From the NCBI RefSeq assembly GCF_032191835.1, contig NC_083233.1, positions 53,506,001 to 53,570,000 on the forward strand: a stretch of 64,000 nt of DNA, written 5' to 3'. The translations under genes were made by a program, and so were the position numbers. This document shows, piece by piece, positions 21,381 through 58,600 of the stretch. Numbering within the stretch: the first letter of the stretch is position 1; the number at the start of each line of letters is the position of its first letter. A model generated the notes under the pieces. That model searched no databases and was not told the DNA's origin. It saw only the letters and a list, made by a program, of their open reading frames with translations. The DNA is from Heteronotia binoei (taxonomy: Eukaryota).

Positions 21381-21659
21381 GAAGAAGATGATATTGGATT
21401 TATATCCCAACCTATACTCTGAATCTCAGAGCTGTCACAATCTTCTTTACCTCCCCCCCCCCCCACAACAGATACCCTGTGAGGTAGGTGGGGCTAAGAG
21501 AGCTCTTACAGCAGCTGCCCTTTCAAGGACAACTCCTATGAAAGCTATGGCTGACTCAAGGCCATTCCAGCAGGTGCAAGTGGAGGAGTGGGGATTCTGG
21601 GAATCAAACCCCTTCTCTCAGATAAGAGTCCGCGCACTTAACCGCTACACCCAATTGGC
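21381..21659 (-). mobile_element. Sauria-type SINE
   Basis: Reverse complement of the 27778 family. Confidence 0.82.
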
Positions 21660-21669
21660 TCTCCACCAT

Positions 21670-21836
21670 CAGGGGTGGAATTCTAGCAGGAGCTCCTTTG
21701 CATATTAGGCCACCCTCCCTAATGTAGCCAATTCTCCAAGAGCTTACAAAAAAGAGCCTTGTAAGTTTTTGGAGGATTGGCTACATCAGGGTGTGGCCTA
21801 ATATGCAAAGGAGCTCCTGCTAGAATTCCACCCCTG
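21670..21836. mobile_element. Palindromic MITE (167 bp)
   Basis: Perfect 44-bp terminal inverted repeat CAGGGGTGGAATTCTAGCAGGAGCTCCTTTGCATATTAGGCCAC; interior also self-complementary. Confidence 0.8.
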
Positions 21837-22949: not shown

Positions 22950-23800
22950 GTTTTGGGGTGGGGGAAGGAGGAAAAACAGATTTGAGCCCCAGCAGGCCGA
23001 GGATGCGGCATCTTCAAGGTGACCCCTACCTTCACCAGCGGAAAGCGACGATGCTCCATCGGGAAGGCCGGGCTCGCCCTGCTGCTGCCTGCAGGGTCAG
23101 AGCCGCCGAGGACAGTCCCGCTCCCCCAAGCGTCACTCCGCAGGAGCCCGGGCAAAGCTCGCCTGCCCCGGCCGCTCTCGGCTTTTGCGCATTGCCCCCG
23201 GGCTGGCATCCGAAAGCCTCTTTCTCCCGCCCCAGCCGCCTGCCTCTTCCCGCGCGTCGCCCGTTAAGCCGCCTCCGAACCCCTCTTTGCAGTCCGGCGG
23301 GTCAGAACCGGGAGCAACAAAGAGCCAATTGGCGAGGGCTTCGCAGCCTTCCAAGAGGCCCCCGGGGCGAAAGATGCCCAGCGCCGAGCCGGAGCCGCCG
23401 GCCAAGGCTGTCCCACGGGCGCCCCCTCCCGCCCTCACCGCACATTGCACCCACCTGGCCGAAACGGCTTTTCGCGCAGGGGCTGCCCACGGCGCAAGGC
23501 TGCGGAAACCGGCCGCGGGCGCAGCAATGCGCAAAATTCCCCCGTCTCCACCCGTACGCGGCCATGACGCAGCTGCGGCTCTGAAGGCTTCCGGTGGGAG
23601 GTCGCGTTTGCGGAGAGAAAGCAAAATACCTCTTTTCTTTCTTCCAAACTTTTCCATCAGTGCCGCTGTGTTGTTGAGCTGCGCATCGAGAGTCCCCCCC
23701 CCCCCATTTTATTCAAGGCTTGCTAACAAACCCGGGGGGTGAGGAGGTCTGTCGCCCCGCGCCTGTACCTTTAAGAGGGCTGGCTCTGCAGAAACCAGCA
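22950..23800. promoter_or_regulatory. CpG island, probable promoter (likely upstream SLC35E4 promoter)
   Basis: Sharp GC/CpG enrichment against a CpG-depleted background. ETS-like CCGGAAG (- strand, ~23587), CCAAT-like motifs, and candidate minus-strand donors AAG|GTAGGG (23030) and AAG|GTACAG (~23768). Confidence 0.7.
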
Positions 23801-24234
23801 GGTGAACGTGGCAATCGGCATGCTGGGAAAGGCTCAGGCGCCAATTAGAAACAGGGCAATTTTGTTCTTAACTTAACTCTCCCACCGCTGTAGGAGCACG
23901 GAAGGAGCCTGAACACATTTTCGAAGGGACGTGGGGATGGGGTCACTCCTGATATTTTTCTTGTTCTCTGACATGACACTACTAGGTCAACCCACCAAAT
24001 GGCATATATCAAAGGCGTTTCCCCAGCATTTCAAACTACTAACTATAGTGTATTGTTCAGGTTGTTGCTTTAACTTTTTTTAATTGCAATTTAAAATTTG
24101 ATTTTATTAAGATATGTTTGGACTGCAAACCACCTCGGGTGCCTGAAGCAGCCAAAGTGGTATGCAGTCTAAACACATCTTAAACTCTTTTCTGTATTCA
24201 CAGATGAATACTTCTTAAAGGGTACTGTCTAGAT

Positions 24235-27777: not shown

Positions 27778-28056
27778 CCAGTTTGGTGTAGTGGTTAAGT
27801 GTGCAGACTCTTATCTGGGAGAACTGGGTGTGATTCCCCACTCCTCTACTTGCACCTGCTAGCATAGCCTTGGGTCAGCCATAGCTCTGGCAGAGGTTGT
27901 CCTTGAAAGGACGGCTGCTGTGAGAGTCCCCTCCAGCCTCACCCACCTCATAGGGTGTCTGTTGTGGAGGAGGAAGGTAAAGAAGATTGTGAGCCGCTCT
28001 GAGACTCTTCGGAGTGGAGGGCGGGATATAAATCCAATATCTTCTTCTTCTTCTTC
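27778..28056 (+). mobile_element. Sauria-type SINE
   Basis: TTTGGTGTAGTGGTTAAG tRNA-like head..GGGCGGGATATAAATCCAATA(TCT)n tail; closely similar copies elsewhere in the window. Confidence 0.85.
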
Positions 28057-29436
28057 CATCTGAATCCCAAATATACCCAAAAAATACTGATAAGATTTTG
28101 GGGGATATATTCAGACTGGATGTATCCAAGCATTCATTCCTAGTAGCGAGTCACCTGTGTAAGCTGTGTAGTGGCCATTGTCAGGCTGGCAAAGTCACAC
28201 AGCTTGCACAGCAGCAAGTCACCAGATGAGTCTCTGTTGCTGCCAGTTGGCCTAGTCTCATTCTGTAGGTTGTACAGCAGCAAGTTGCCTTTCTTAGTGA
28301 TGAAGTGGCCACCACCAGGCCCAGCTGGGCCAGTTACATGAATCACACAGCTGCTGCTGGGCCCAAGCAAGATGTATAAGTTGCAGAGTGGTGAGCAGTG
28401 TTCCCTCGAAGCTGAGTTAGTGTGAGGTAGCTTGAAGGGTTTTTAGCCTCTGGCTTGCACATTTTTGACTTAGCTCATGAAAAATGGCTCCAGAGCAAAC
28501 TAATTTATGCAGTAGCTCACAAAGTAGAATCCCTGCTCACAAGACTCCACAGCTTAGAGAGAACATTGGTAGTGAGTTATGTAGTGGCTGCTGCCAGGCT
28601 CGGCCCCTCAGACAAGCCATCCCTCCATCAGGCACTTGGCATGGGAGTGCTCAGGACTGCTTTTCAGGACTAGATGTGGAAGGCTAGGCAGTATTGTGGT
28701 TATCTAGTAACCTCTGCAATGGCCACTGAGATCTCAGCACATAGTCTTTGAAGATCTTTGTGTGCATTCCTTTCTTAAAGTTATAGAAACTGCTGCTGTA
28801 ATTTTTTGGGAGAGGAGATATAAACCGTGTCTTTTTAAAATTTTCAGTTGCAAATTTTTCAGCAATCAGGGGCCTCCCTCAGGTTTGTAGACATGCCCCC
28901 TTCTCAGCTCCATTATGGGAATTTTTGATCCACACTACACATCCTGGTTCAGCATTACATACAATGGTAAGATTTTAGCAAAGAATCCATTATTTTTTAA
29001 AATCCAAACAAGTTATTTGAGTTAACTGGAAAACAAGTATTTTCACATAACTATTTATGCTTACCCCCCAAACCCCTGAATTTTTAAAAGCACATACTTC
29101 CATCAGACAAAAGAAAGATAATTCAGTTGATAACTAAATATTCAAGCAAATTCTCAGCTGCTCTTCTGGTTTTCTCGCATACTGACTGGATGACCAGAAA
29201 TGGTCCAGTTTTTTAGAGAGGTCACCAATTTTTTCATGTGAAAGTCTCACCCCATAAGCTTCCTCCTCAGATGGAAAAGGGGTGGTGCCATCTACCCCAT
29301 CCTGACACAAATCTTTGCTGCTGCATAACACTGCAACCAAAGCACCTGACCACCAGGCAGGCTGCCTCTTCTGATGAGGATTGCAGTCTTTAAAGGGATG
29401 CAAAAGCCAGAAGGAGGGAAGGGGAGAAAAAAGACA

Positions 29437-33000: not shown

Positions 33001-36000
33001 CATCTCCTCTTCTTCTAATCTCCTCTGAGGGAACACGCACCCCTTTTCTGTTTTTGTTTTTAAATTTATATAAGCATGTGTGTGCACCTAGAAGTCATGG
33101 CTACCTCTGGTGACTGACCTCTACTGGGAGCCTGGAGGATATTCAGGGGGGTGGCTGAATAAAGCCTGCCCCTCACCCCCCAACTTCTAGTATTCCAAGG
33201 AAGTCACCCAAACAAAAACTTGCCAGAATCAACCCTGCTTAGCTTCTGAGATCTGATAAGATCCGGCTTGCCTGGGGAGGAGGAGGAGGGAGAGGAAGAA
33301 GAGATTGGATTTATACCCCACCCTTCATTACCTGAAGAAGTCTCAGAGTGGCTTACAATCTCCTTTCCCTTCCTCTCCTCTCAACAGACACCCTGTGAGG
33401 CAGGTGGAGCTGAGAGGACTCTTAACAGAAACTGCTCTTGAGAGGAACACTGCAAGAACTTGTGACTGACTCAAGCTCACATCAGCTGGTGCATGTGGAG
33501 GTGTGGAGAATCAAACCCGGTTCTCTCAGATAAGAGTCAGTGCACTTAACCACTACACCAAGCTGGCTCTCAGAAGCACCAAGGAGCTTCTGCAGTGGAG
33601 AACTAATAGGTGTGAAAGTGGCCAAGCACCCTGCCACCTACCTGGTGACAGAAATGCATTATTTTTCCATCCTGAGCCTTATGGGAGGGCACGATAGAAA
33701 TCAAAGTAAATAAATAAATATCTGACTCATGATAATCCTTTCAAGTCTTGTGAAAAACATCAAGAAGCCTTGAAGTGGTGATGGAAGAGATGGCAAAGGA
33801 AAGTATGGTATACTGTGTTATTGGGAAAATTATCTGCATATAGGAAGTTCTGGAATGGAGTCCAACATGTACAAGATGCAACATGTACAATCACATCTCC
33901 CTTCATTACTTTTTGGAATAGAAAGAGCTCTAAAGAATCAGTCAAAAAAGAGATACTGAACCTTGTTTAGATTGGCAAATATTACCTCATAGATCTTCAC
34001 AGATATCGTATTAAGTGTATAATATTATAAAATAAATGGATTATAAAAACTAAAAGAAGTCCTGAAGTGGGAATTGTTGACATTCCTCATGGAGTGCCTG
34101 CCAGCCTATTATTTTTACTTCTTACACAGATTCTGCTGCATTGGAAATCAAAGTTAAAAAAGCTATTGCTGCGGTTTCTAAGAGATAAGTGTGAATTTCA
34201 GATCAAAGACAGCAAGAAGAAAAAGACTGAGGGGAGTCTCTGGAGGGAACTAAAGAACTGTGCTACCATGCCCACATAAAATAAATTTCTGAGAGTCATG
34301 TGTTCTGGAACCCAATTAATTATATACCACATTCAGACTGATTCCTCACCGGCATTTGCTGCACCCCCACACTTCTCCTTGCATCTGCACAAGCCATCAA
34401 TTCTCCACCAGTCGCTCTGCAGCCTCTTGCTTCGGAGCTCCTTCCCATTCTCATCGCAGCAACTGGAACTCCAAAAAACCAGCATCCTGTTGCTGCGATG
34501 GTAATAGGAAGTAGCTGTGATGTAACTAGTGGGGAATCCATGGCTTGAGCTGGTGCAGGGAGAAGCGTGGGGGCAGAGCAAATGCTGGTGAGGAATCAGT
34601 CTCAGTCAAGAGCGTCCATCTCTCAGCTGGATTGGTCTACGGTAAGTAGCTTGCTCAGGTAACAGAGCCTCTGCCACAGCTTTGCTCTTACTCCCAAGGA
34701 CTGCAATGCTGTGGAAGGGTGATATGCAACAACCGATTCTCCATTGTAATGACTTCACCCCTAGATCTGATTCTGGTACTTATTTTGACAAATGTCGATT
34801 TAAGAACACATTTGCTCTTCCATGTAATAGCCCCCACCCCCAGTATTTGAAGAATCACACCTTCCCTTAGTCTTCTCCAGGGTAGCACATTCAGTTTCTT
34901 CAACTTTTCCTCATAGAACTGCTTTTCCAGTTGCAGGGTCTGGAAAACAAGCTGTACAAGGAAAAGCTTAAGAAACTGGGTGTGTTCAGCCTGAAGAAGA
35001 GAAGACGGAGGAAAGACATGACTGTGGTCTTCAGATTCCTCCAAGAGCTGTTTGCTGCCCAAGAGGGCAACTCTAGACCTGGGGCTTAAGTTGCAGGCGG
35101 GAGGATTCCAGCTGAACATCTGAAGGAACTCCCTAACAATAAGAGCAATTCAACAAAGGAGCGCCTCACAGGGAAACAAGTTGACCTGGGTTGGTGGCTG
35201 GCTGGGGGTAATCCCAGTTTTGCATATTCTCACTTCCTTCCTCAACCGTACCTTCCTCAGTGTGGCACTCCATCCTGGCGATGTCCACATAGCTCTTGCC
35301 ATGTAAGACGGGTAGCAACTGGGATCCGACAAGGGGGTTTTGGAAGATGCCTTCCTCCAGCTTCCCAAGCAGGGCGGCCATACCGTTGGGGCACTCTGGC
35401 TCCTTGTTCCTCACCCCCGCCGCAATGAGAAACTATGTCAGAAAGGGATGGAATGGAAGAAAGAAGCTGTACTTGTGTTCTGCTGCTTGGGAGGCTTCTA
35501 AAGCTGAGCAGGGCAAAAAGCAATCTTCTAGAACAGCTGGGGTAGGCAGTAAAACCAGACGTCTCTCAGATTTACTATTGAAATGACAGACGTGCCTACC
35601 AAGAAATCTAATGCTGGCTTGGCTGTTACTCTTACCCCTCTCCCTTGCTTCAGGAAGGCGGGTGGCTTTTTTATTTTTAAAAGCAGCAGTCTATGGCTGC
35701 TCATGTATCTGTACTTTAAAGATGGAATGATAGGTGGTGATATTAATTGATTAAATGTCTTTCAATCAATAAAAGGGTGTCTAAAACTAACTGGGCACTG
35801 GATGTGGGCTTTTAAAAGTATTATTCTTTTAAAATGCAATTCCTTCTAAAGGCAGTGGATGACAAGCGCTTTTTGACCAAGTGGCTTTTCAGCAACTTCC
35901 ATGTAATTGGCTTTAAAAATACACACAGAGAGGAGGCATGCAAGAGTCTTTGCTCTTCTACCAAAATGGCAGCAAGACTCATTGATGGTAAATTCTTGAG

Positions 36001-39000
36001 CCTCTCCTAAGCACATAAAAAGACACCCCACTGCACATGTCCCAATCTCCTCACCTGCACTGCCAGGGGGCTGCTGTAGATGTTCCCAAAAGTCCCATCG
36101 GGAGTCTGAGCCTGGAGGATCTTCTTCTTCACTCTTTGGACTGCCTGGCTGAGCTCTGCCACTAGCTCAGGTGTATAGAAGGTGGCTCTTTCCAAGCAGA
36201 CAAAGGCTAAACCGGCCATCGCTTCTGTGTCTGGGTAAAGAGGAACAAGGCAATGGATGGTGGGGGGAAATCTGGGGGGATGCTTCTAGCCTGGTGTGGA
36301 GATTTTTGCCTTTGCTACAGTTTTAAGGATCATCACATGCTAATGGTCTTGCCAAATTTAGGGGGAGTGAGTCTTGGCTAGAAGACTGTCAGCAGATCTA
36401 ATTAACTTACAAAAAGTTAGAGGGGATGGAGGCATAAACTGCAAAGGCCACATTGGAAGCAGCCTCCACAACAGATCCCAGCTTTAGAAAGGTGGTTTAA
36501 TCCAGGAGGGAATTGACTGGCTCAAAAGCAGGAGAAGAAAATCAGTTTCCAGAATGGCATCCCAAGCAGCCCAAGGATGGTGGACACAGAACCAACAGAG
36601 AGTTTTCATCAGGTACTGAAACAGGCACTCACTAACTCCCTTGTGGTGAATGAGAATCCTCTCATTCCTCAGGTGAGCAGCTAAAGAAGTGATACAGGCA
36701 TAGGCTGTCTCTTTAACTGAGCAGGATAATTCCCAGTGAGCCACAAACATCTGGAGGGATGACCTGGATTCCTCTTTACAAAGAGAACCAGGGCATTTTC
36801 TTTCTCGCATGGAAAGTGATCCAGGCATGGCCCATTCCTGAGTCACCCTTCTCATGAGGATGAAAAGGCAGTGGCCACTGCATCTCCATGAAACAGGTAA
36901 CCCAGGCACAGCTAAAACAACAGCCACTGTGCACTCAACTGGGCCAGCCTCCCTTCAAAGGAAAGAGAGGCAGCAGCCTTCCTCAAAAGGAGGGCAGTCC
37001 AGATTCTGGGCACAGTGGCAGCTGCTACACTTGCACTTGGGCCACCATCTTTGCCAGGCAGAGGGTGCAAAGGGCAAAATGGCTGTCTCATCTCAACAGC
37101 TGCCATCTCAGCAGCCCAGTGACCCAGCAGAATTTGATAGTCAGGGTAGAAGGATTATCATATGACATGGATGGGAAATGATAGGCTTCCAGTTTGCCCC
37201 TGACTGGATGAGAACAGATCACCTTTCCACCAAGCTGCTTAAGTTTCACACATTACATACATACAAATACATGGGGCTAATAAAAATCACTGCAGACTAG
37301 CAACTTTTGTGGACTTATTTGCAAGGCTGGCTCTTACCCACAAACAGCTGGCTTCCATGCTCAAATCTGCCCTGCTTCTCTGCAGCCAAGAGCTTATTGA
37401 TCACATGCACATCGACCTTCTTGTTGTGGACACACAAAGCCAAAACCCCCAATCCGTACTGGTAGTAGTTAGTGAGAGGCCGACCATTCTTCTCATGAGC
37501 TACTGTAGAAGCAAAGAGACCAAGACTTAAGCCCTTCCTTTTCTGCCATTCCACCCAGAACCTCTCCTCATAAATGGATCTACCACAGCCATTATCCAAC
37601 ACCAATATTGGAAGACCACATAATTTATACAGTAAATGAATGGCTTTGTGGCCAAGCACCCGCCTTGCACACAGACACTCCCATGTTCAGTCCCTAGTTA
37701 AACACTAGTTAAAAGCTCTCAGGGAGCAAATATTGAGAACTTTTCTCCTCATGCAGCTCCTTTTAAACTTTCCCCTGTGTGTGTGCGCGTATGTGTGTGA
37801 TAGGAGAAGGGTGCCCTCCCCACAAGAATTACCGTTGCCAGCCCAGGATCCTGATCTTACCTATAGATGCCTTTTCTTTATGCAGGTGTAACTTAAGCTG
37901 GGTTACTAGCTGCCTCTCCGAGGGTGTCTCCATGTTCTGGCAGGCAGCCCGCAGTGCTAAGAGGTAGAGGGCCAGCTGGCCCGTATTGGGCTGCTCCTGG
38001 CCACTGGCTGGAGTTGGAATGCTGGACCAAGTGAGACAAACCACCAAATGGTTAGCCTTTTCAGGGCACAATTCACCAGCTTTATGTTTAGCAATTTACG
38101 AACATCTATTTCAAGTATTTTTAACAAAGACTTTATGCATTCTTGTCTCTCTGCTTCCTCTCTTCCATATCTCCCCGAGGGTTCTCAGCTTTTAAACTGG
38201 TCCCTCTAGCTGTCCTTTCAAGATTAGTCTGATATGCAGCAAATAGCAGAAGATGTTTACTTCCATGGCATGAAAAGCTTCAAGTGTTCATTTGCACACA
38301 CTGAAAGTCTCTATTAAAGGTACAGGACATTTTTTTTCTACTGTCCAGTTAGCAAAGCTAGTCTAATATGTTGTTGAGTATCGGACTCTGCACCCGCGCC
38401 GCGCAAGCCGGGACGTCCTCGGGTTACCTGGCGCAGCGCGGGAAAAGTCACCGCCAATCAAGACCAAGCGCGGGAAGTTTAACTGGCCAGGATTGGGCTG
38501 GCCAGCAGGGGGGTTGATCCGGGGTGCATGTATATATTAGCGGACCCGGCCGCGTGTTTCCCAGTTCTGTAATGTATCAGCGATTAAAGACCAATGCCTT
38601 TACCACGTCTCGTCTCCCAGTACATTACACTGGCGACGAGGATGGGATCTAGATAGGTCCGGCCGGAGACGAGGAAGGCGAGAGACCGCAGGATCGGGCA
38701 GCCCGCCGCCACCATGGCGAACTCGAGCGTAACGACGGGCCATCTTGCGGAATTCAACCCGGAGCACCCCGAGAGATGGGAGACCTACACCGAAAGGGTC
38801 GAGTGCTACCTGCGGGCGAACCTGATCGACGATGACGAGAGAAAGAGAGACGTCCTGCTGAGCGTCTGTGGCGAAGAGACCTTCGAGATCGCACGAGGTC
38901 TCTCCGCTCCAGCTAAGCTGACGGAGAGGACCTACCGGGAAGTCGTGAGGCTCCTCACGGGCCACTTTTCACCCCAACCGTCCATCGTCGCCCGCCGATT

Positions 39001-42000
39001 CCTCTTCCACAAGAGGGACCAAAAGTCGGGGGAGACAGCGGCGGTCTACCTGGCGGCCCTTCGGCAGATCGCCGGAAATTGCAACTTTGACAAAAGGGAC
39101 GAAGCCCTGCGGGACCGTTTCGTCTGGGGCCTCCGCGACGAGCGATTGCAGCAGAAGCTCTTCGCGAAGGAGGAGCTAACGCTACAACAAGCCTTCAACG
39201 AGGCAACGGCCTTCGAGAGGGCCACCAAGGCGTTCGGCCAGCCACGAGGTGAAGCAGTCCACCAAGGGGAAACGGAGCCAGAAGACCGAACAGAGGAAGA
39301 AGCGTTTCAACTCCGGCGGCCCCAAAGAACGGACACAAGGGCCCCCACTAGACAGCGAGCGACGGAGAGGGCCACCGCCACCACCGGTCCCAGATGCGCC
39401 AGCTGCGGCGACCCCCACGAGCGCCGGGACTGCCCGTACCGCAACCTGGACTGCCGCAGCTGCGGAAAGACGGGCCACATCGCTCGGGCTTGCCGGGCCA
39501 AGAACAGCCGCCGACAACCATCAGCGCATCACGACTCCCTGGACACCCACACGACGGCATCCACCACTCTGCAGGTATTGAACTTGCCCCTATCGGCCCC
39601 AGACAAGGTCAAAATGTCGGTCCTAATCGAGGGCGCCCCCTGCACCATGGAAGTGGACTCGGGTTCCTCCATCTCCATCATTTCGGAGGAAACCCTCAAG
39701 AAACTATGCCCCCACCGCCGCCTTCAAACGAGGCCAGCGGACTTCGTACTGAGGGACTTTCAGAAGAACCCAGTACACATCGTGGGGTGGGCCCGGGTGC
39801 ATGTGGAAAGAAGGGGTTTCAGAGGGCCCCTGGACATCCTAGTGGTCAAGCGCCAACTGACCACACTTCTAGGGTTGGCTTGGTTCAATCCCCTGGGGAT
39901 CCAGCTGGTGGGGGTGGACCACTTGCAGGCAAGCAATTTCGACGGGGTCTGCCATGAGTTCCCCGAGGTCTTTGATGGGTCTTTGGGGAGCTATAAGGGT
40001 CCGCCCATCACCCTACCGATTGACCCAATGGTCAGGCCCATAAGGCTTAAAGCGAGGCGCGTCCCGTTCGCCCTTAAGCCTAAAATAGAGGCAGAACTGG
40101 ACCGCCTAACGGCCCAGGGCGTCCTAGAACCGGTAACATACGCGGAATGGGAAACCCCCATAGTAACGCCCGTCAAACCCAATGGGGAGGTGAGGATCTG
40201 CGCTGACTACAAGTGCACGATCAATAAGGCGCTACAAGACAACCCCTACCCAGTCCCGGTGGTCAGCCACGTCCTAGCAGCGCTAGCCGGGGCGAAGGTT
40301 TTTGGGAAGCTGGACTTAGCACAAGCATACCAGCAACTGCCGGTCGACGCTAAGACAGCGGAGGCGCAGACGATCGTGACCCACAGGGGCGCGTTCAGGG
40401 TTAAACGGCTGCAGTTCGGGGTCAGTGTGGCTCCGGGGATATTCCAGAGCATAATGGACGCTCTCCTTAAAGGGATCCCCGGAGTTCAACCCTTCTTTGA
40501 CGACGTTTTAATCGCCGCCCCCAATGAAGGAGAGTTCTGCTGCCGCCTGCGCGAGGTCCTCAGGCGGTTCCAAGCGGCGGGGCTGAGAGTCAAAAAGGAG
40601 AAATGTTTGTTAGGGGTCCCGCGAGTGGAGTTCCTGGGGTTCGCCGTGGACGCGGCGGGGATACACCCGACGGCGGACAAGACCAGGGCCATAGTCCAGG
40701 CTCCGGCGCCCAAATGCAAGGCAGAACTACAGAGTTTTTTAGGATTGTTGAACTTTTATCACACGTTCCTACCGCACAAAGCCGCCGTAGCGGAACCGTT
40801 GCACCGTTTGCTGGATAAACAGGCCCCGTGGGTCTGGGGCCAACGCCAAGCCGCGGCGTTCCAAGCGGTGAAGGACCTCTTGGTCTCTAACGCGGTACTT
40901 CACCACTACGACGAAAACCTACCCCTGATCCTAGCTTGCGACGCCTCCCCCTACGGAGTAGGAGCGGTTTTGGGGCACCAACTCCCGGACGGGAGGGAAG
41001 TGCCAGTCGCGTACTATTCACGGACTCTATCTCCAGCGGAGCGGAACTACGCTCAAATTGACAAGGAGGCCTTGGCGATCGTGGCGGGGGTGCACAAGTT
41101 CAACGACTACCTCTACGGTAGGCGTTTCACCATCGCCACGGACCACAAGCCGCTCCTGGGCCTCCTAGCTCCAGACCGTCAGACCCCCCAAATCCTATCC
41201 CAGAGGGTCCTGAGGTGGAACCAGTTCCTGAACTCCTACACGTATGAACTGATCCACCGCCCGGGTAAAGCCATGGGACACGCCGATGCCCTCAGCCGCC
41301 TGCCGCTCCCCATGACAGAACCGGATCCCGCCCCGGCACATGGGGTAATGCTCATTGAATCGCTCCCCGAGCGCCCCCTGCACGCGGCGGAGGTGGCTCG
41401 GGCAACAGGGAGGGACCGCATCCTGGCACGGGTCAGGGACTGGGTGGGGAGGGGGTGGCCATCAGGCAAAGTCGAAGACGCGTTCAGGCCATTCGCGTCC
41501 AGGAAGGACGAGCTATCAACCCACAAGGGGTGTGTGCTTTGGGGCAGTCGGGTGGTGGTTCCCCCCCCCTTGCGCAAGCAGGTGCTGGAAGACCTCCACG
41601 AGACCCACCCGGGCATCGTGAGGATGAAAGCCCTGGCCCGTAGTTATGTGTGGTGGCCGGGCATGGATGAGGAGATAGAGGGGTGGGTGAGGAGGTGCCA
41701 ACCCTGCCAAGAATCCCGGCCCGATCCCCCATCAGCCCCGGTCCACAGATGGGAGTCTAACAGGCGACCATGGTCCCGCCTCCACTTAGATTTTGCAGGC
41801 CCGTATCAGGGCCAAATCTTTTTTATACTTGTGGATGCCTACACAAAATGGCTGGAGGTGATTCCAGTAGCCTCAACCTCCACAGCAGCAGCCGTCCGGG
41901 CACTCAGGAGGGTCCTATGCACGCACGGGATCCCAGACACCCTGGTGACGGATAACGGTACTGCATTCACCTCCCGGGAATTCCGGGAGTTCACGGAGAG

Positions 42001-45000
42001 GTACCTCATACGACACATAAGATCCGCACCCTTCCATCCGGCCACCAACGGCCAGGCAGAGCGGATGGTGCGGACCGCCAAGGAAGCACTGGGGAGAATA
42101 GTACAAGGGGATTGGGACCACCGCCTCTCAGCCTTCCTGTTCCACAACAGGATCACCCCAAACCCTATAACGGGATCCAGCCCCGCAGAACTGCTTATGG
42201 GGAGGAAACTGACAACACGCCTAGACAGGCTGCACCCCGACCGGGCCCCCGAGGTCCGCGGGTCCCCAGAGGTCCGGGAGGCGGTGCGGGGGTTCTTTCC
42301 GGGTGACCCGGTATACGCGAAGAACTTCGCAAGCGGTCCCGAGTGGGTCGCGGGGAGAGTCCTTAGGGTGACAGGTTCCAGGTCATACGAGGTGACCACC
42401 GAGGGGGGCCAGGTACTAAGGCGGCACATAGATCAGCTGCGCCGCCGCACCCTACCCGAAGAAACAGAGGAGGTAGGGAATAGGGATCCGCGGGCAACCG
42501 AAGGTCCGGAAGGGCGCTCGCCAATACAGGAACTACCCACTTATGACGCCCCCAGAGACACCGAACCAGAGCCGGAGCCTGAAACAGACCCCAACATCCC
42601 GCAGCCAGAAGCAGCATCGCCCACAACGGAACCAGCCTCCGCACCAAGAGCGACCCCGAGGAGATCGACACGGGAACGGAGAGCACCGGCGTACCTCCGG
42701 GACTATGTGGTTTAAACTAAGGGGGGAGGAGTGTTGAGTATCGGACTCTGCACCCGCGCCGCGCAAGCCGGGACGTCCTCGGGTTACCTGGCGCAGCGCG
42801 GGAAAAGTCACCGCCAATCAAGACCAAGCGCGGGAAGTTTAACTGGCCAGGATTGGGCTGGCCAGCAGGGGGGTTGATCCGGGGTGCATGTATATATTAG
42901 CGGACCCGGCCGCGTGTTTCCCAGTTCTGTAATGTATCAGCGATTAAAGACCAATGCCTTTACCACGTCTCGTCTCCCAGTACATTACATATGTAGACTG
43001 CAAACTCTCTGGGGCAGGATTTGGCTTATTTATTTTTATCTTTTATACCCTGTTTTTTCTCTGCAGTGGGAAACCAAAACAGCTTACAACATTGTTCTTC
43101 CTTCTCCATTTTATCCTAACACCACCCCCCTTGTGAAGTAGGTAAGGCTGAGGAGGACAACCAGCCTGAGGTAACCCATCAAGCTTCTATGGCAAAGTGG
43201 ATAGCTTAACTGGGGTTTTCCAGACCCTAGTACAGAACCATTATTCCACACTGGTGCGGTGGGAAAAAAGTTAAATGTTTTCCTATTGTCATTGCTTTTC
43301 TCTTTATCTATATAACAACATAAAACAGGTAAATATTGAAATCTTGATTCCAAGGGATATAGCCAATTTTATAATTGATCAATAGTCAATAAATAAAACT
43401 GGAAGTCATCAGGGCCGGATTAACAATTAGGCTAAGTAGACACTGGCCTAGGGGTCCCTATGCCTTTAGGGGCCCCAGGCCAGCTTTCCCCCACGTTTTC
43501 CTCCCTGCTTGCAGCCCTTGGAGCCTGCACACAAAGTCAGCAACTGAGCCACTCTTTGCCCAACTTGCCTGGTGCGGCGGCTGCTGGTGTTTTAGCCAAG
43601 TTTGCCTTTTTCTGCCTCTCCCCTGCAGTGTTGTCAAAGGGACTCATGCAAGGGGCCATGGGGGGTGAGGCAGGTGCTCCAACTTGGGGATAGGGGCCTC
43701 CACAAGGTTTATTCCGGCACTGGAAGCCATGCAGCAAATTTCAGTTCACCTCTGCTTCGATGTATCTTTTCTTCCATGCCTCAAAACTCTCTAGAGATTT
43801 TGTTTCTCTCCCCCTTTAATTGCCACCCTTGACCCTCCATTGAATCAGACAGCTGTGCTTTCGCTTGATTAGAATTTTGATGCTGATGGACATGCCTGGT
43901 GAAACTGGGCTGGAAGACATCCTTCAGTCGCTGGAGGTACTGGTTTTCTCTCTCTTGAATGTGGTAATCAGAAAGACGAAGGCCCAAATACACGCTGGGG
44001 TTTGGCTCTTTGGACGCATCCTCTGTTAGTTTCAGTAGCCCCTTGTTCAAAGACTTGATGTGATGAGTCCTGCCACTGGGGATTTCTTGCACAGGAAGAG
44101 AACACACAATGTGTGAGGCAGGTACAATAACCTCACAACAGTTATAGTCCGATCCCTAGATCTCAGAGCTTTTGGAGATCATTAGCTCTCCTTTGTGGAG
44201 CAAGAAAATTGAGATACAAGCAGCAACAGCTGGAGTGGTTAGACTCAACAGGTCTCATGGTTACCTGCTCCTCTTTGCTTGAGAGTAACCATCATACAGT
44301 AAAAATGTCTTCCATGTCAAAGGTTGTGTTAAGAATCAGCAACACTTGGGGGGGGGGGGGGGACTAACAATCTGTCCTTTGGCTGCATAACAGAAAAAAG
44401 CTCCTAGAATCATAGAGTTGGAAGGGACCTCCAGGGTCATCTAGTCCAACCCCCTGCACAATGCAGGAAACTCACAAATACCTCCCCCTAAATTCACAGG
44501 ATCTTCATCACTGTCAGATGGCCATATAGCCTCTTTTTAAAAATCTCCAAGGAAGGAGAGCCTACCACCTCCCGAGGAAGCCTGTTCCACTGAGGAATCG
44601 CTCTAACAGTCAGGAAGTTCTTCCTAATGTTGACCCGGAAACTCTTTTGATTTAATTTCAACCCACTGGTTCTGATTATACCTTCTGGGGCCACAGAAAA
44701 CAATTCCACACCATCCTCTATATGACAGCCCTTCAAGTACTTGAAGATGGTGATCATATCACAGTCGCCTCCTCTCCAGGCTAAACATCCCCAGGATAGA
44801 GGATAGCAACAGGCTCTTCCCAAGGTGGGAGCAGGGGAATATTATAACGGGAATGTCAGAGAATCACACAGTGCAGTCCCAAGCAGAGTTACGCCTTTCT
44901 AAGCCCATCATCTTCAATAGAAATAGAAGGGTGTAACTCTGCTTAGGACTGCATTGACACGGCTGCAAGAAACCTAGCATATCTCCCTGTTTTTTCAGGT

Positions 45001-47408: not shown

Positions 47409-49020
47409 GCAAGTATACATGCACAGGCCTGCTTAATGCAGATTAGTTCTAGATCTCATTTTTTTCATTTAAAACACATTGGTGAACTGTGTGGGTTTTT
47501 CTTTTGTTTTAAAGAATAGAAACAGACCACACAAGAATAAAGTTAGCCCAGTCCTAGGGGACCCAGAGAGCAAAACACTTGACCATTTGCCACTTCTCTA
47601 TACAACAGAAGTTCTTGTATCTTCCTTTGTCCTGCTCTGTATCTTCATGCTTAAAACCAAGCTGCTTTGCAAGGCAAGGCAACTGGTTATTAATGTTGTT
47701 AAATAATGTTTTATATTGTTTTATATTGTTAAATTTAAAGGTTTTATTATTACTGTATGTTATTAAGAAATGCTGTTAGCCGTCCTGAGCCTGCCGAGGC
47801 GGGGAGGGCGGGATACAAATAAAATTTATTATTATTATTAAGGCAATCCTTAATAATACACAATCCTGTGTATGCTTAAACAATTCATACGTTCGCAGAA
47901 CTTTCTTACAAGGAAGCTTGGATTTGCAGGCCTTAAAAACTGACATCAAACCAGCTTAACTGAGTAAGGATTATATTCAGAGAAAAGGCAAAGCAGCTGC
48001 CTTGACGCAGCCCTACCTTAGCGCGGTGGTAGTCTCTTTCTGTCCCCGGAGGCTTATCCCCTTCCCCTTGGATTATAAATTGGGGAAGGGGTTTAAAAGC
48101 AACTTTGAGAAAGAGATCTTTCCCCCAGTTGCTGGGCAAAGACAGGACACTCCTCTTTCTTGTTTACTTGAGGTCATGTGATACTTCCTCCAGCTGCTGA
48201 AATCAGCTGTTTGAAGGGCGTTTGTTTCAAGAGATAGAGGCTGGGCTGAAGTTTTAGGAGGATGAAGGCAAGCCACTGCAACGGGTCATGACCATCTTAA
48301 ATAACCTACTAGCTCCCTTCCCTTGGGAAGTTAGCAGGAAAAAAAATGTGTTTTTCACAGGCTTGTACAAGGGGTACTAAGAGCACAACTGGTTTGGTAG
48401 ATATTCATCCTTACATACCACGCACTTCCACTTTCTTTTTAGAAAGCGATACTCCTAATTCCTCACAAAAGTAAGTCTCCAAGTCCACTTTCACAATTGC
48501 ACACAATTACTTTACATTGGGTCATACATGACACTCTGCAGAATAAGCAAATGCTGACTACAGTTAACAATCAACTGCTATTAACTTTATATAAAGCTTG
48601 TCAGTTTGTTTATGCTGCTGTCATACAGCTTGTTATTATACAACCATTTTCTCTGTTTGCACATTATAAATAGCAACAATTTTGGCTCCACATGGAGTGC
48701 TGATAGCTACTACTGTTATGGTACACCAAGGAATAAAGTGCTGCTGAATATCACAATAACAGCATCTAGTTCATATGAATTTAAGAAAATAGTGGCCTAG
48801 GCAATAGTAAATCTGGATATATACTCAACAGGGTGCTATAGCCAACTTTGGCTCCATAATCCAAGAACCTGGCTGATACACATATTTGCAAGCAGGGCTT
48901 TTATTTTTCCTAGGGGAACGCAGTGGGGTGGAGTTCCGGAATCTCTTTGGGGAAACAAATTCTCAAAAAAGTTCATGAGGGGCCCCTGTGTGTTTCTCCT
49001 TCATTTCCTTCAAACTGGAG

Positions 49021-49293
49021 AGCCACTTTGGTGTAGTGGTTAAGTGCGTGGACTCTTATCTGGGAGAACCGGGTTTGATTCTCCACTCCTCTACTTGCAC
49101 CTGCTAGCATGGCCTTGGGTCAGCCATAGCTCTGGCAGAGGTTGTCCTTGAAAGGGCAGCTGCTGGGAGAGCCCTCTCCAGCCCCACCCACCCCACAGGG
49201 TGTCTGTTGTGGGGGAGGAAGGTAAAGGAGATTGTGAGCCGCTCTGAGACTCTTCGGAGTGGAGGGCGGGATATAAATCCAATATCTTCTTCT
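49021..49293 (+). mobile_element. Sauria-type SINE nested in a hAT MITE
   Basis: Highly similar to the 27778-28056 copy. Confidence 0.85.
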
Positions 49294-50220
49294 TATCCAG
49301 CACCTTTTTATCCAGAAAAAAGCCCTGTTTGCGAGCATGTGTTTGTTTCATTCATACATGAAGATGTTAAGCCTATACCTACACTACCACCTGTATAGCT
49401 TAGTGCTGAAGATCTCCAGTTAAGTCTCCAGCTGAAGAATCTCAGGGCTTGGCAGCAGTTCTCATACAGTCAGAGGAGACAATTCAGGAACATGGCTAGA
49501 ATGAAAATGGTTCAACAATATAAAAGCATCATGTGTGCGTGTCATCTTTTATAATTTGAGTTAAGCTTGGTGCATTAACTTCCTTTTAAAAGTTTGTTGT
49601 TGTTATATATATATGTTATATATATATATAAGTTGGAAAAAAAAATCAGAGAAGGAAAAAAGGATTTTAACTGTTAATAATATATTTCCCTCCCATAAAA
49701 CCATCCTCTTCTCTAGCCCTAAACAGAGGGAAAGGAAAGAAAGAAAAACCACATCCAGACATATAAATTTTATATCAAGTTTACAGCTTTAAAAATTCAG
49801 CACAAATACCATTATATTTAACGTCTGCATTCTATTATTAAATCCTTTTTTCCTTCTCTGATTTTTTTTGTCCAACTTACTATAAGAGGTAGAATTACAA
49901 CTTTCCAGTATTGAAAAATAGGATTTTGACATAGTGTTGGCAATCTCCAGGGGCGGCCTTGAGATCTTCTGCTTTTATAACTGCTCTCCAGCGGGGAAAG
50001 ATCAGCTCTCCTAGAGAAAATGGCTCCTTGGACAGATGGATTCTATGGCTTTATACCATGCTGAGGCCCCTCCCCGCCCCACCCCTCCCTCCATCTTTCT
50101 CTTATCTATAGCTGCCAGATAGGAGTCCCTGTGAAATTCACAAATAGGGCCCATGACCTCCAAGCAACAGAGACACTTCACTCGACTCTCCCAAAAGCCA
50201 GAGAGATTAAAGCTCTATAG

Positions 50221-51999: not shown

Positions 52000-52581
52000 A
52001 GCACGACACTTCTACGTTTACAAACAACCAATGAAAGAGGTGGAGGACGCCTTCAACAACATCGCCCAGTCGGGCCTTCTCTAATCCCAGCATGCCTCTG
52101 GGTGTCACCAATGTCCCTTCTCCTTCTCAGTATACTTCGCAAACCCATCCTTGACTCTATCGCTAACCATACACATCTGGAAGGCTTTCTAGCTTCGCAT
52201 CTCTATGATAGGCAGCCGAACTCCCAGCATGCTTTGCATTTTTCCCTGAAGTGTCTTAAGGCCCGCACTTAGGCTCTTTTGTAGTCGTTCGCAGTGATGC
52301 CTTTTCAAAAAGGCGCTAATTCTCTGAGAGCTTCTCTGGATTTTTTCCCTAAAGAGGCTCATTACAGAGTGATAAAAATGCAGAGATTATTTTTTTTCCT
52401 TTTCCGTCGCCTGTATCGGTACCACGGAACGGAACCCGATAAATGTGAGGCATCTGATCAGGCAGCATGTGGAACGCCACAGTAGGGTCCTGAAAACATG
52501 CTCAGCTTTCGGAGCTTCCTGAAGCCACCACGTGAGCGTTAGGAGAGCTCGAGAAGGGAAGAATATCTTGTTTCAGTAATA
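52000..52581 (+). promoter_or_regulatory. PES1 promoter / 5' region with two ZNF143(Staf)-like sites and CCAAT boxes
   Basis: Local CpG enrichment; TCCCAGCATGCCTCTGGG (52085) and TCCCAGCATGCTTTGCA (52222); CCAAT at ~52028 and ~52108. Confidence 0.55.
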
Positions 52582-52605
52582 ATGGGTGGCTTGGAAAAAA
52601 AGAAG
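52582..52605 (+). CDS. PES1: PES1 coding exon 1 (MGGLEKKK)
   Basis: ATG GGT GGC TTG GAA AAA AAG AAG|GTAAAA. Confidence 0.92.
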
Positions 52606-55600
52606 GTAAAATGAAGTAGTTTGTGTTTAATCAGGCTGTTTAATAATGTAGTATGTTCTTTAGCGCGCTAAGGCAATATAATTCTTACAACAGCCATGCC
52701 AGGTAGGATGCTGTCGTACCCATGAATGACTGAGAAGAGATTGGTTTGTCTTAAAAAATCCATTGTAGAGAAAAGGTTTGGACTTTCCAGTGTAAACAGT
52801 GTCGGTGAATATCCTATTCAGTATTTCTATAGAATTTTTAATGTGAAGGAGCATTCCACAGTGTGAGCATCCAGCTGCTGTTTGAAGCAGTGAATTTCAT
52901 TATACCATCTCAGCTCTTTGAGCTTTCCTACTCTAACTCTTTGAAATATTTAATGCGTATTTTCTCATGTATAAATCATTGTAACTGGGAAGCGGCAGAG
53001 CATGGAAGTGGGAGCATGGGAGCCAGCCTCCTTGCAATAGTGAGGCTACAGATCAGTACCAATCAACTTTGGCTTCAGTTTGAGGAATCATCAGCTCCTA
53101 ATGTTTGTCTCCTTCTTGTTCTGTCATCTCTGCCCTCCTCCCCCACCCCACACTGAAGTATGAGCGAGGCTCTGCAACCAACTACATCACCAGAAACAAA
53201 GCTCGGAAGAAATTGCAGCTGAGCCTGGCAGATTTCAGGTATGGAAAAAATATGTTGGTCTTATTTATCAGGCAGATGCCCAAGACTAAGTACTGACTCT
53301 TGTGTATTTCACTGACACAGGGGAGGTGTGCAGTGTGAATTTGTGTGCAGATAGAGAGTTTGCATCTCTGGTGCCTGATTGCTGTCAGCAAAGGCTAAGC
53401 TATCTAATGTTGGTTGAGGATAGTGAGTTTTACACTTTACGTTTTCCCCTACAATTGAGACCATTCACTGATATGAAAGAAAGTGAGGGCACACTCAGAT
53501 GGAGATGAATCTTGTTTCCTTCTCCCTCAGTGAGCCCAGTAATTGAAAACCAAGCCTGGTGGATCTGTGTAGCCCTTATTTCCTGTTTAGTTGTAGAGTA
53601 TCACAGTGTTGTAGAGTATTACAATATGTGTGTAAAGTGTTGTCAAGTCATAACTAACTTACGGTGACCTTATGGGTTTTCGAGGCAAGAGACTTAACAG
53701 CAGTAGTTTGCTGTTGGCTTTCTTTGCATAGCAACCCTGGAATTCCTTAGTGGTCCCCCATTCAAATACTAACCAAGGCCAACCCTGCTTAGCTTCTGAG
53801 ATCTGACAAGATTGGGCTAGCCTGGGCCATCCATGTCAGGGCAGCCTCAATAGAAACATTAATTCATATACCACATATTGTACCATTCTTACTCATTTTA
53901 GCCAGTGACCTTGTGAAGTTTGTTGCTGTTCCCATTTGCTGCCAGAGTAGTGAGGTTGAGGGTAAGAAATGTGTCAAAAAATCAACAGTGGGTTATTAGC
54001 TGAGATCGGAACTCTTTGGCTGATTCCTTTGTGCTGTGGCAGCTTAACGTTGTTTCGGAATGGCTGCAGAGATTGGCTGCCTTCGAGTCCCAGAGAAGAG
54101 GTAGTGGGGGACATTTCTTTATTTAAAAGGTGTATGTGTCACTCTGGAGATCTGTTGTAGGCGGCTAATAAAATGTTCAAACTATAGGGAGTAATGGAGA
54201 TTATTTCACACCTTAAGAATATGCTGGGCAATACAGTTATCCTGCCAAGTGATTTTATAAAATCTTTTTAAATGGAGGCTTGTAAGAAGTAAAGTACGGT
54301 ATACATTTGGGAATGTGTCATCAGGTATCCTGATATATAAATTAATTTTAAAATACGGATCAGGACCATGGTGGACAGGTCAAACTACCCCAGTGTAGTT
54401 TCTTTAAGAGATCAAACCCACCCACCTCATGCTACCAATAGGGGAAAAGATAGGAATCCATATTGTGCCTGTCTTTCTCTTACCTGGCTTTAGTAGAAGA
54501 CTGCAGATTTATACCCCAACCTTCTTTCTGAGTCTCAGCGGCTTACAGTCTTCTATATCTTCTCCCCCCTCAACAGACACCCTGTGAGGTGGGTGGGGCT
54601 GAGAGGGCTCTCACAGCAGCTGCCCTTTCAAGGACAACTCCTGCGATAGCTATGGCTAACTCAGGGCCATTCCAGCAGGTGCAAGTGGAGGAGTGGGGAA
54701 TCAAGCCTGGTTCTTCCAGATAAGAGTCCGCACACTTAAAACACTACACCAAACTAACTGTGTGGATATGTGTGATTTATTTTGGGGAAAACAACAGAGG
54801 GTGAAAGATTTAGCTGTCTCCTTTGTGTGTGTGAGTGCTAAGATCCAAAGAAGAGCTTGGGAGCCAGGTGCACTTTCCAAGGCTCCCAAGCTCCTTTGCC
54901 AGCAAGAGGCAAGAAAAGTATGGGGGCTTCTGGTTAATGCAACTTCCCTCTGCTTCCTTCTCTAGCTAGGTGGCTTTAGAAGGGAGTGTGAGTAAAACTG
55001 CATGCAGCAAGGTTTTCACTTCATGTTGTCTTTCCAGTCATTGAGTGGATATGTTAGCTCTTCCTGCGTGTGTTGTATCTCTCCTACAAATGACCCCCAC
55101 CCCCCCAGCTATCTTTAATCCTTATTATTCCTCATCAGCCTGAGGCCTGTGTGCATTTGCAGGGTAGAATTACCCTCCTTCAGGGCCCAAATTTATAGAT
55201 CCTTACTCACACCATAGTGGATTGCAGATGGGCAGCTTAGTGTAAGAGTTCTCTGCGTTGACTTACTGAAAAGACCACAGTTGTTGTGGGGGCATAGAAG
55301 GTAGAGTAAGTTTATATGGCAATAAAGGCTTGTGTTTGTTTAAGTTTAGAAAGGGCCCCCTGAATTTGAGAAACATGGGTAGAAATCATAAAGGTAAAGG
55401 TAGTCCCCTGTGCAAGCACCAGTCGTTTTTGACTCTGGGGTGATGTTGCTTTCACAATGTTTTCACGGCAGACTTTTTACAGGGTGGTTTTCCGTTGCCT
55501 TCATAATAGAGCCTATTTCAGTGCTTCAGAATTGAATGTAGTAGATGGATTTAGGGGTGTTACCAGCTGTATAGCATGTTTTGGCAGCTGCTGGCTTAGA

Positions 55601-58600
55601 AATTAATAATTCTCTGCATCCTCCTGTTTAAACTTCAAGCTGCTTGGGATTTTGGTGCAAGGGCAAACTGACAAGTTCTTGTCTAACATCTTTGTCTCTT
55701 GTAGACGACTGTGCATCCTTAAAGGGATTTACCCTCATGAGCCCAAACACAAGAAGAAAGTGAACAAAGGTTCCACGGCTGCCCGGACTTTCTATCTCCT
55801 CAAAGACATTAAATTCCTCTTTCATGAACCAGTTGTTAACAAGTTCCGGGAATATAAGGTATTATGATCCAGCAGCTGATCAAGAGTAGTAGATTACTGT
55901 TTCACTGCATAGAGTCACTTTAGGGTGACAGGCAAGGGGGGATTCCCAAGTCTTCTGAGTACTGCCATTTTTTGTAAGTTAGACAGCATTCTAGCCAGTT
56001 TGGTGTAGTAGTTAAGTGTGCGGACTCTTATTTGGGAGAACCAGGTTTGATTCCCCACTCCTCCACTTGCAGCTGCTGGAATAGCCTTGAGTTAGCCATG
56101 GCTATTGCAGGAGTTGTCCTTGAAAAAGCAGCTGCTGTGAGAGCCCCCTCAGCCCCTCAGGGTGTCTGTTGTAGGGGGAGAAGATATAGAAGATTGTAAG
56201 CCTCTCTGATTCAGAGAGAAGGGTAGGGTATAAATCTGCAGTAATCTTCCCTGTATCTTAGTGACAGTTGTTTAAGTGCAAGATCCTGTTTGTGCCTTAT
56301 AAGGCATTAATGAGTCTGGTTATATTTCAATATAAGATCTGTTGAATCTTGCTTGTGTTATTAAGCATTTCCAGTGCCTTTACCTGGTGTGCCATCTATA
56401 GTGGATCAGATGTTTCATTCTTGAGTGGAACTTGTGGAATGTTAGTGGGTAGCTGGCTGTGATATGAACTGTGTGGTAAACAACTGTAAAACATGGTCAC
56501 TCTGAAACTTTTGTCTCCCTCTAGGTGTTTGTCCGCAAGTTGCGCAAGGCATATGGCAAGAGCGAGTGGAACACTGTGGAACGCCTGAAAGACAATAAAC
56601 CGAACTATAGGCTGGACCACATTGTCAAGGAGAGGTGAGGGATAGGAAGCACCAGAAGAACTTTGTGAAATAGACATTTAGAATCTAGGGCTTGGGTGTC
56701 AAACATGTGGCCTAGGGGCCAAAACTCCCAGAAGGTTCGTATCAGGCCCCTGAGCAACTGTCTGCTGTCTGCTTCCTTCTCTGTCTCTTTTGCTTCCTTC
56801 TGCATCACAGCTTGCCTTGCCGGGCTTGTTCAATAGCACAGGAGCTGCAGAGCAAAACCTCTATTTTCTTCAATGGCTGAGGCTTCTCCCTTGGGGAGGA
56901 AGGGGGGGAATAGCTTGCTTTGCCAAGCTCTCCCAGTTGTACAGCAGAGCCTCTCTTCCTTCTATTGGCTGAGGCTTCCCCCCCACACACACCGCCGGTC
57001 CCCTGGGGAAGGAAGGAAAGAGCCAGAGCTTCCTTTGCCCGGTTTCCTGGATTGCATGGGAGAGATACAAAGAAAGCACCTTTAAGACAAACGAATGCTA
57101 ATGTTTTAAGCATGTTTCATTTTAAATTCTTAAAAAATCTTTAATTGTGTTTGTATGTGTCCTTTATGAAGTTTATATCTCCGTTACCTGGCATTACATT
57201 TTATGATGCTCATGGCCTGGCCCGACAAGGTCACATTTATGTTGGATCCAGCCCTCATAACAAATGAGTTCAACACCCCTGATTTAGGGCGGAAGGATGA
57301 CAAAAGACTGGGGAACTTGAACTTTATAATTTATTGTGTTGATTTATTTTTAAAAAATATTTATACTCACCTTTCTTCTTGGCCCGAGTCCACAGCACAT
57401 AGCTAGATATGTCAAATTTTTGGAAATTTTGAATTCGTTGGGAGGGGATACAGTTCCCCTCTCTTTTTTGGAAAAGAAAACACATTTTTGGAAGAGTTAA
57501 AATACATATGATATTGATTGTCAAGCCTAAACTTATTTTACTGTTTTAATGACATAAAATATCTGCTTCATTGTTAGCACATAGAAGTGTATGGTTTCTC
57601 ATGTTTATGACATTTTTAAATGCCTTAGAATTCTACAAGCAATATTATGAATGTATCCAATATGAGAGAAGGTGGGAGAGTACAATCTTGCTGGAAAGAC
57701 TGAAGATCACTTCACTATGCCAGTCCTTTCCCCAGATGCTCTCTCAGTTTCCTACCAGTTCCCACAGTATTTTCAGGGAACAGGAGAATCTGGTTAGGAA
57801 AACCTGAAGACAGCAGAAAGAAGCCATGTGTCTTGTTGCTCAGAGACCCATTTATGGGCATTCAGGTTCTATAAGAGTAGCTCACAACACTTGCAGGTGG
57901 GGCTAGTTGAGAAGTCTTCTAACTTAATTTCTTTGGTCTTCTGAGTACTGTGGCTTTAGCCTGAGAGCAATTGTAAAAATTTTGGGTGCTTAAAAAAGGT
58001 TGTGTAAATCTGTCTTTTTCATCTTCTGTGGTGGCTACAGATACCCCACTTTCATTGATGCTGTGCGAGACCTGGACGATTCCCTCTCCATGTGCTTCCT
58101 CTTTGCAACTTTTCCTCGTACGGGCAAGTGTCACGTTCAGACGATCCAGCTTTGCCGCCGACTCACCGTGGAGTTCCTCAACTACGTCATTGCTGCACGT
58201 GCTCTGCGCAAGGTCAGCAAGGAAAGGCTGAGAATGCTCTTGGTCCTGGAGAGGGTTGCTCTGTTGTGTCCACAGTCCATGCAGCACATTGGCACTAAAT
58301 GGGGGTGTGATAGTACTAATAATATCTCTTAGCTAAATGCTTCATGAATAGTGTTTTGAGTCTCTGTGTATGTGTAAAGTTCTATCAAGTGGAGGCAACT
58401 TATGGTGACCTCATAGGGTTTTCAAGGCACGAGACTAATAGATGTGATTTGCCATTGCCTGCCTGGTTTTCCTTGGCTAACTTTAACATATTTGTTGTGG
58501 CTGAAAATTGTTGGAAGCTGGATTTGCATATTTGTGTATATACATGCAAAAGCTTACTCAGGGGATGGCGGAGTTTACAATTCACTTTGTTAGCAGTAAG

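Follow-up and report, generated by a model that had tools for sequence, protein, structure and literature searches.

A young, intact Mag-type Ty3/Gypsy element in a TCN2 intron of the gecko Heteronotia binoei, with candidate splice sites for a Gag-only RNA and relatives in hard ticks

The 64-kb stretch of Heteronotia binoei DNA considered here (the window: positions 53,506,001 to 53,570,000 of contig NC_083233.1, renumbered from 1) contains, within an intron of the transcobalamin-2 gene TCN2, a 4618-bp Ty3/Gypsy long terminal repeat (LTR) retrotransposon located on the plus strand at 38372-42989. That this element is intact and carries a single open reading frame (ORF) is hardly in doubt. A broader reading is put forward tentatively, as somewhat short of an even chance: single-ORF, Mag-type Gypsy elements of lizards would produce their surplus of Gag by a conserved alternative splice from the end of Gag into a shifted frame of the reverse transcriptase (RT), comparable to that of copia, and their lineage would have passed between lizards and hard ticks.

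The element and the intron that contains it

The features of the element and of the surrounding part of TCN2 are as follows, with the basis of each assignment in brackets where it is of a particular kind.

38367..38371, plus strand: 5' target-site duplication (TSD), 5 bp (sequence)
38372..38629, plus strand: 5' LTR, 258 nt, TG...CA ends, with a TATA-like box at 38531 and a poly(A)-type signal at 38583
38631..38648, plus strand: primer-binding site (PBS) for tRNA-Ser(GCU) (12 nt matched, 6 nt presumed)
38714..42715, plus strand: gag-pol ORF, 1333 aa (ORF list, Pfam, PDB)
38714..39574, plus strand: Gag, with a capsid-like domain at about residues 8-175 and tandem zinc knuckles (model, motifs)
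39395-39433, plus strand: knuckle CX2CX3HX4C
39452-39493, plus strand: knuckle CX2CX4HX4C
39617..39900, plus strand: aspartic protease, catalytic motif at 39650-39667
40031..41248, plus strand: RT (FFDD at 40493) and RNase H
41558..42460, plus strand: integrase, with an HHCC zinc finger, a D-D-E core and a C-terminal module, no chromodomain
42720..42731, plus strand: polypurine tract (PPT) (sequence)
42732..42989, plus strand: 3' LTR, identical to the 5' LTR
42990..42994, plus strand: 3' TSD
37861..38021, minus strand: TCN2 coding exon downstream of the insertion (RNA joint, PDB match)
38022..43895, minus strand: TCN2 intron with the element, GC-AG, 5874 nt, or 1251 nt minus the element and one TSD (RNA-contig joint)
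43896..44086, minus strand: TCN2 coding exon upstream of the insertion (RNA joint, homology)

The cis-acting parts and protein domains are all present and the integration scar is clean. An earlier note on this DNA had described base-for-base identical LTRs of 258 bp, a perfect TATGT duplication, a PPT abutting the 3' LTR and undepleted CpGs, all of which hold: the LTRs are 100% identical, TATGT stands on both flanks, the purine run adjoins the 3' LTR, and the element has an observed/expected CpG ratio of 0.84, compared with 0.22 for the remainder of the window. A single base separates the 5' LTR from the PBS downstream of it. Of the 18/18 match to tRNA-Ser(GCU) claimed for the PBS, the first 12 nt were matched, while the remaining 6 nt are presumed to match the vertebrate tRNA. 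Read as its reverse complement, the matched part equals the 12-nt 3' end given for tRNA-Ser(GCU) in the beetle row, one of the three rows considered of the PMC13524379 supplement. Searching the literature with the PBS letters returned unrelated primers only. Upstream of gag, and downstream of the TATA-like box, three further ATGs open short frames (at 38572, 38594 and 38642, with 26, 20 and 4 codons), one of them overlapping the PBS. There is no second copy of the element within the window.

As the note had stated, the ORF opens with an ATG in Kozak context and runs without an internal stop or frameshift. Its order is Gag-protease-RT-RNase H-integrase. Ty3 Gag-Pol is its best match in the PDB (E 8.7e-80). 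Pfam families above the cut-off are RT, RNase H, integrase H2C2 and rve, and the zinc knuckle and aspartic protease give matches below the curated cut-off. The two CCHC-type knuckles of the nucleocapsid occupy residues 228-240 and 247-260. Residues 1-175 of Gag adopt a capsid-like fold in an alignment-based model (pLDDT 84.8; only 43.6 when modelled without an alignment), and the top Foldseek matches of this model are the capsids of dArc, MLV, PEG10, Ty3 and PNMA2, with a best E of 3e-4. The last 171 aa of the ORF contain no Pfam family, and no family of any kind, chromodomain and env included, was detected by Pfam in any of five pieces covering the C-terminal region and other frames, in agreement with the absence of both in the earlier description. 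From the ORF stop to the 3' LTR there are 16 nt, with no env ORF.

The host gene was named as TCN2 from the outset, and this assignment stands: all three exons tested have transcobalamin-2 as their best PDB match, five exons of the window match the cobalamin-binding family of Pfam, and the gene is flanked by SLC35E4 and PES1, one on each side. The SLC35E4 of the window is 95% identical to that of Paroedura, 93% to that of Eublepharis, 82% to that of Podarcis and about 60-67% to those of most of the teleosts listed, as befits a gecko. The gene and the element have opposite orientations, TCN2 being encoded on the minus strand; this antisense arrangement is absent from the earlier note. By homology we take the upstream exon to be exon 2, which would place the insertion between coding exons 2 and 3. 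By the RNA joint, the intron starts with GC instead of GT (43890-43899, minus strand); the joint leaves the cut free to move by at most 4 letters, and no GT reading fits.

RNA evidence comes from the contigs of three runs, X1, X2 and, from a related species, X3, for which 15 of 33 joints are displayed. Over the three TCN2 exons (517 nt), the X1 and X2 contigs show no difference from the window and those of X3 show 45. A joint that skips 38022-43895 is found in all three runs, and no joint of the empty site is among those displayed. The TCN2 joint does not show that the allele with the insertion is spliced normally or that the insertion is harmless. The insertion is likely to be tolerated, because it is antisense and keeps its distance from both host splice sites, with 345 nt on the acceptor side and 901 nt on the donor side.

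Affiliation, relatives and age

The TG...CA LTRs, PBS, PPT, TSD, order of the enzymes and retroviral-type capsid fold are those of Ty3/Gypsy elements. Within this group, the element is Mag-type by its anatomy, which fits on several counts: two CCHC arrays, a Ser PBS, a 5-bp TSD, short LTRs and no env. The Mag-like label of the earlier note is thus supported, although the trees contain only unnamed relatives. According to the parts of PMC2577118 available, Mag has two knuckles in its nucleocapsid, a trait common to Micropia/Mdg3. For PMC3286476, the part considered allows a tRNA-Ser or tRNA-Leu PBS for Mag, and its Table 1 lists, among 21 Culex Mag rows, 16 with a Ser PBS and 20 with a 5-bp TSD, LTRs of 119-304 nt and a size of 4-6 kb for most elements. 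The element resembles Bombyx Mag and the Mag-like cqgypsy elements of Culex in knuckles, PBS, TSD and LTR length, and differs from them in its vertebrate host. Three other affiliations were discarded. A chromovirus (V-clade, sushi) is ruled out by the lack of a C-terminal chromodomain in the Pfam search and by two knuckles instead of the usual one; an errantivirus or endogenous retrovirus, by the absence of env and the mere 16 nt left for it; and the Gmr1 clade, in which the integrase is located upstream of the RT, by the opposite order here. The first vertebrate Mag element is said to be Jule of Xiphophorus (Volff 2001), reportedly of about 4.8 kb, with short LTRs, no env and an almost intact copy in the intron of a host gene. 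Compared by description only, both are vertebrate elements of Mag-family type, the host of Jule being a fish.

Relatives were drawn from the best 120 of 873 matches of a search that admitted proteins of 733-2333 aa and so favours long ones. They are mostly polyproteins of squamates, ticks, nematodes, insects, amphibians and fish, together with unnamed ones. Those labelled 'K02A2.6-like' in Heteronotia, Zootoca, Lacerta, Gekko, Eublepharis, snakes and hard ticks have the same anatomy as the element. In both a FastTree of 117 rows, from which 4 rows with short cover had been removed, and an IQ-TREE of 37 rows picked by hand, the next branches after a Heteronotia sister family are Gekko and then the lacertids. 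The sister family has 100/100 support and 89.9% identity over RT, RNase H and integrase. This order follows that of the hosts and gives no sign of recent transfer. Recent horizontal transfer was rejected: the search for near-identical copies in distant taxa, proposed in the earlier note, found none among the proteins searched, the nearest relative being from a gecko at about 90%. The best local alignment of any protein match does not exceed 83% identity, and the exact protein of the element is not in the collection. No relative was found in viral contigs. Zootoca, Podarcis and Xenopus tropicalis have many full polyproteins of this group and of the same length (clusters P0002, P0011, P0013 and P0023, with 133, 67, 121 and 23 members), which points to widespread recent bursts. 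In Zootoca several full-length copies are 99% identical, so that young intact copies are common in lizards. Two annotated proteins in which element domains are fused to host domains, P0081 of Erythrolamprus (an FKBP15 isoform) and P0009 of Heteronotia (PF00003), are probably chimeras of gene models. The window copy is a routine insertion of an ordinary member of a widespread family with many equally intact copies in lizards.

The in-frame fusion of gag and pol, presented in the earlier note as a feature of this element, is real, but it is not peculiar to it. Both knuckles and the protease and RT motifs are found in one chain in 72 of the 120 homologues. A Gag search free of the length limit shows Gag running in frame into the protease in 45 of 85 knuckle-bearing representatives, and 7 of the 21 Culex rows in Table 1 of PMC3286476 have one ORF. 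On these grounds, the fusion is a family trait.

With no difference over 258 nt, the 95% upper limit for the age of the insertion is 1.2-5.8 million years if 5e-9 to 1e-9 substitutions per site and year are assumed; with CpGs mutating 10-fold faster, it is 0.5-2.3 million years. Insertion within the last few million years is likely, and an age below about 3 million years is favoured with good confidence, the open ORF and intact CpGs agreeing with youth. The element had been called extremely young: 'young' is supported, and 'extremely' overstates what the LTRs alone can tell. Given LTRs as short as 258 nt, their identity might instead be due to assembly polishing, collapse or gene conversion in an element older than it looks. 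This is very unlikely, as youth is indicated, independently of the LTR comparison, by a TSD without mismatch, an ORF open over 4 kb and the contrast in CpG content.

Short contigs of X1 and X2 lie along the whole element, the longest displayed being about 88-97% identical to it, and those of X3 give next to no cover of it, which is not proof of absence. The contigs show many diverged copies and not one conserved locus. Of 40 displayed differences (504 more exist), the ORF accounts for 34; among these, 30 are synonymous, against 25% expected. This excess is evidence of selection on the family and not of activity of the window copy. The description of the element as potentially active thus finds support at the level of the family and is not shown for the copy in the window. 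As the element lies inside TCN2 and is rich in CpG, it could also have been taken over for a host function, such as regulation of the gene or antisense transcription from a promoter within it. Such a role is scarcely credible, since the element retains both LTRs and all its enzymes in working order, in the manner of a selfish element, and since the RNA contigs, including their near absence over the element in X3, do not point to one conserved locus.

How the Gag to Pol ratio may be set

The earlier note asked how an element with gag and pol fused in frame would set its Gag:Pol ratio, a question that proved productive, as it led to candidate splice sites. Nine slippery-type heptamers are scattered along the ORF; as the frame is open, a programmed frameshift is not needed. 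In the available parts of PMC5580714 and PMC3735527, Gag-only RNA is made by splicing in copia (Drosophila), BARE1 (barley) and EVD (Arabidopsis), single-ORF elements in which a splice near the Gag/protease boundary shifts the frame towards an early stop. These are Ty1/Copia elements, whereas the element described here is an animal Mag-type Gypsy and its splice is predicted only. The same sources describe CRR (rice) and Ogre, plant Gypsy elements with splices of other kinds. Tf1 and Tf2 are given as single-ORF elements in part of PMC10085805. An open-licence literature search for Gag-only splicing in Gypsy elements yielded only PMC5580714, of which part was available.

The case for splicing starts from six Gag-only RefSeq models (XP_060129890.1, XP_060130748.1, XP_060126410.1, XP_015264150.1, XP_015279477.1 and XP_015277321.1). 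Those of Zootoca have 300 aa and come from three loci (P0145, with two accessions, and P0155); two Gag-only models are among 15 listed members, of 133, in the P0002 cluster. Residue 288 is the last that they share with the polyprotein; the 12-aa tail that follows, together with its stop, equals the +1 frame of the P0002 RT at residue 589 in 13/13 positions, the next best place giving 6. Three loci of Gekko japonicus (P0429 and its cluster mates P0546 and P0547) have an equivalent 11-aa tail, and the Gags of the Gekko and Zootoca models are only 35% identical. A degenerate test for the tail detected it in 3 of 425 element proteins, P0429 being the one added, and in none of 20000 random segments. 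All six models thus appear, at the level of predicted sequence, to join the end of Gag to the same out-of-frame point of the RT. The window element has the corresponding sites:

39572..39614, plus strand: two candidate phase-0 donors at the Gag/protease boundary, GT 39575 and GT 39608 (predicted; homologous to the Zootoca and Gekko break points)
40449..40511, plus strand: candidate acceptor, AG ending 40472, and +1-frame stop at 40509-40511 (predicted)

With donor, acceptor and stop at matching places, copia-like splicing likely sets the ratio. By analogy with other LTR elements, whose cycle is known, the 5' LTR would drive a genomic RNA, the polyprotein would be cut by its own protease, tRNA-Ser would prime reverse transcription inside the Gag particle, and the integrase would make the 5-bp duplication. 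Part of the RNA would be spliced from 39575 or 39608 to the acceptor in the RT, which would remove 865-898 nt, shift the frame and end translation after 12 more codons, so that a Gag of about 300 aa results.

Several observations weigh against this proposal. No joint inside the element is among the 15 of 33 displayed for X1 and X2, each of the two candidate donors is spanned by contigs without a splice (record 2 of X1 and record 8 of X2), and there is no sign that the window copy is transcribed or has transposed. The sites are not outstanding: the candidate donor fits the consensus at 6 of 9 positions, a score shared by 35 sites of the element and exceeded by 2, and the candidate acceptor ranks 33rd of 90 by a crude pyrimidine score. 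The six models are all RefSeq predictions from one annotation source, other arbitrary breaks occur in gene models of related elements (Heteronotia, tick), and it is possible that the Gag-only models are an artefact of the predictor. The tail is absent in 17 of 19 short-member pairs and in 27 of the 28 Gag-only representatives listed. The Q/K/E-V donor pattern is found at the query position in only 10 of 110 homologues, and the valine of the donor could be kept for the N-terminus of the protease.

The lack of an internal joint among those displayed and the moderate quality of the sites would fit a rival in which the same young element leaves its RNA unspliced and makes one polyprotein, the excess of Gag arising as Pol products are degraded, as reported for Ty5 of yeast in part of PMC5580714, and in which the Gag-only models are predictor artefacts on broken copies. 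In Zootoca, identity to the representative is 97% for the Gag-only models and about 99% for full-length members, so that the former may be older, broken copies; the available part of PMC5580714 also reports no conserved splicing for Ty3/Gypsy elements of Arabidopsis. On the other side, a homologous acceptor and Gag-end donor recur in two families with 35% Gag identity, at three loci each, and a site so unremarkable by its sequence would be an unlikely choice for a predictor to repeat unless RNA supported it. The unspliced alternative is an appreciable possibility that stays well below an even chance. Splicing as the source of the Gag excess is slightly favoured, on predicted sites and models.

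Hard-tick relatives, surroundings and wider meaning

The second part of the broader reading concerns ticks. In the 37-row IQ-TREE, the Rhipicephalus element P0008 and the Ixodes element P0135 group with 24 squamate rows with 100/100 support. Tick and lizard proteins are 70-76% identical over RT, RNase H and integrase, against 61-70% between several squamate families, and when the search is run in reverse, from the tick elements, the closest proteins outside ticks are those of lizards (70-71%). Contamination is unlikely, because the Rhipicephalus and Ixodes elements (P0008, P0007/P0135) are multi-copy in the tick assemblies, where they are on large contigs. A Dermacentor Gag (P0399) is 67-68% identical to the Gags of Rhipicephalus and Ixodes. 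In approximately unbiased (AU) tests of two groups chosen after inspection of the tree, a clade of the hard ticks with the soft tick Ornithodoros was rejected (p-AU 0.00013) and a squamate-only clade was not (p-AU 0.16). The ticks are thus placed inside or sister to the squamates, without nesting being established. The next outgroups include a soft tick and Trichinella, likewise parasites of vertebrates.

From these comparisons, an old transfer between ticks and lizards, in either direction, seems likely, a protein identity of 70-76% implying that any transfer would be old. Deep paralogy with patchy sampling is the rival explanation. No paper on the sharing of such elements by ticks and lizards was found by title or abstract start. 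For Bov-B, likewise a retrotransposon common to ticks and reptiles, transfer via reptile ticks is described in the available part of PMC13295347, although Bov-B is a non-LTR element and the one here has LTRs.

Elsewhere in the window, fragments resembling ORF2 of long interspersed nuclear elements occupy 10300-11970 and 44400-44840, the second with very high RNA-contig depth; we presume that they are of CR1 type. A dispersed repeat of about 250-290 nt and 73-93% identity, probably a short interspersed nuclear element, has copies at the following places:

21381-21663, 27778-28057, 33285-33571, 49016-49298, 54500-54755 and 55993-56242: dispersed repeat

The CpG-rich kilobases 23001-24000 (observed/expected 0.84) and 52001-53000 (0.64) are probably promoter islands of neighbouring genes, and stretches found to be self-complementary by self-comparison (21668-21838 and 34335-34602) are possibly miniature inverted-repeat transposable elements.

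The interest of the element is moderate and rests on the predicted splice and the link to ticks, not on the insertion itself. If the insertion is polymorphic, it would provide a simple marker and a natural test of any effect of a 4.6-kb antisense insertion in a GC-AG intron on B12 transport. Single-ORF Gypsy elements need more Gag than Pol, and this one offers exact candidate splice coordinates. If the prediction is true, an animal Gypsy lineage would have reached a trick known mainly from another group of retrotransposons, the copia-like elements. The similarity of hard-tick elements to those of squamates would extend the known traffic of retrotransposons between ticks and reptiles to an element with LTRs.

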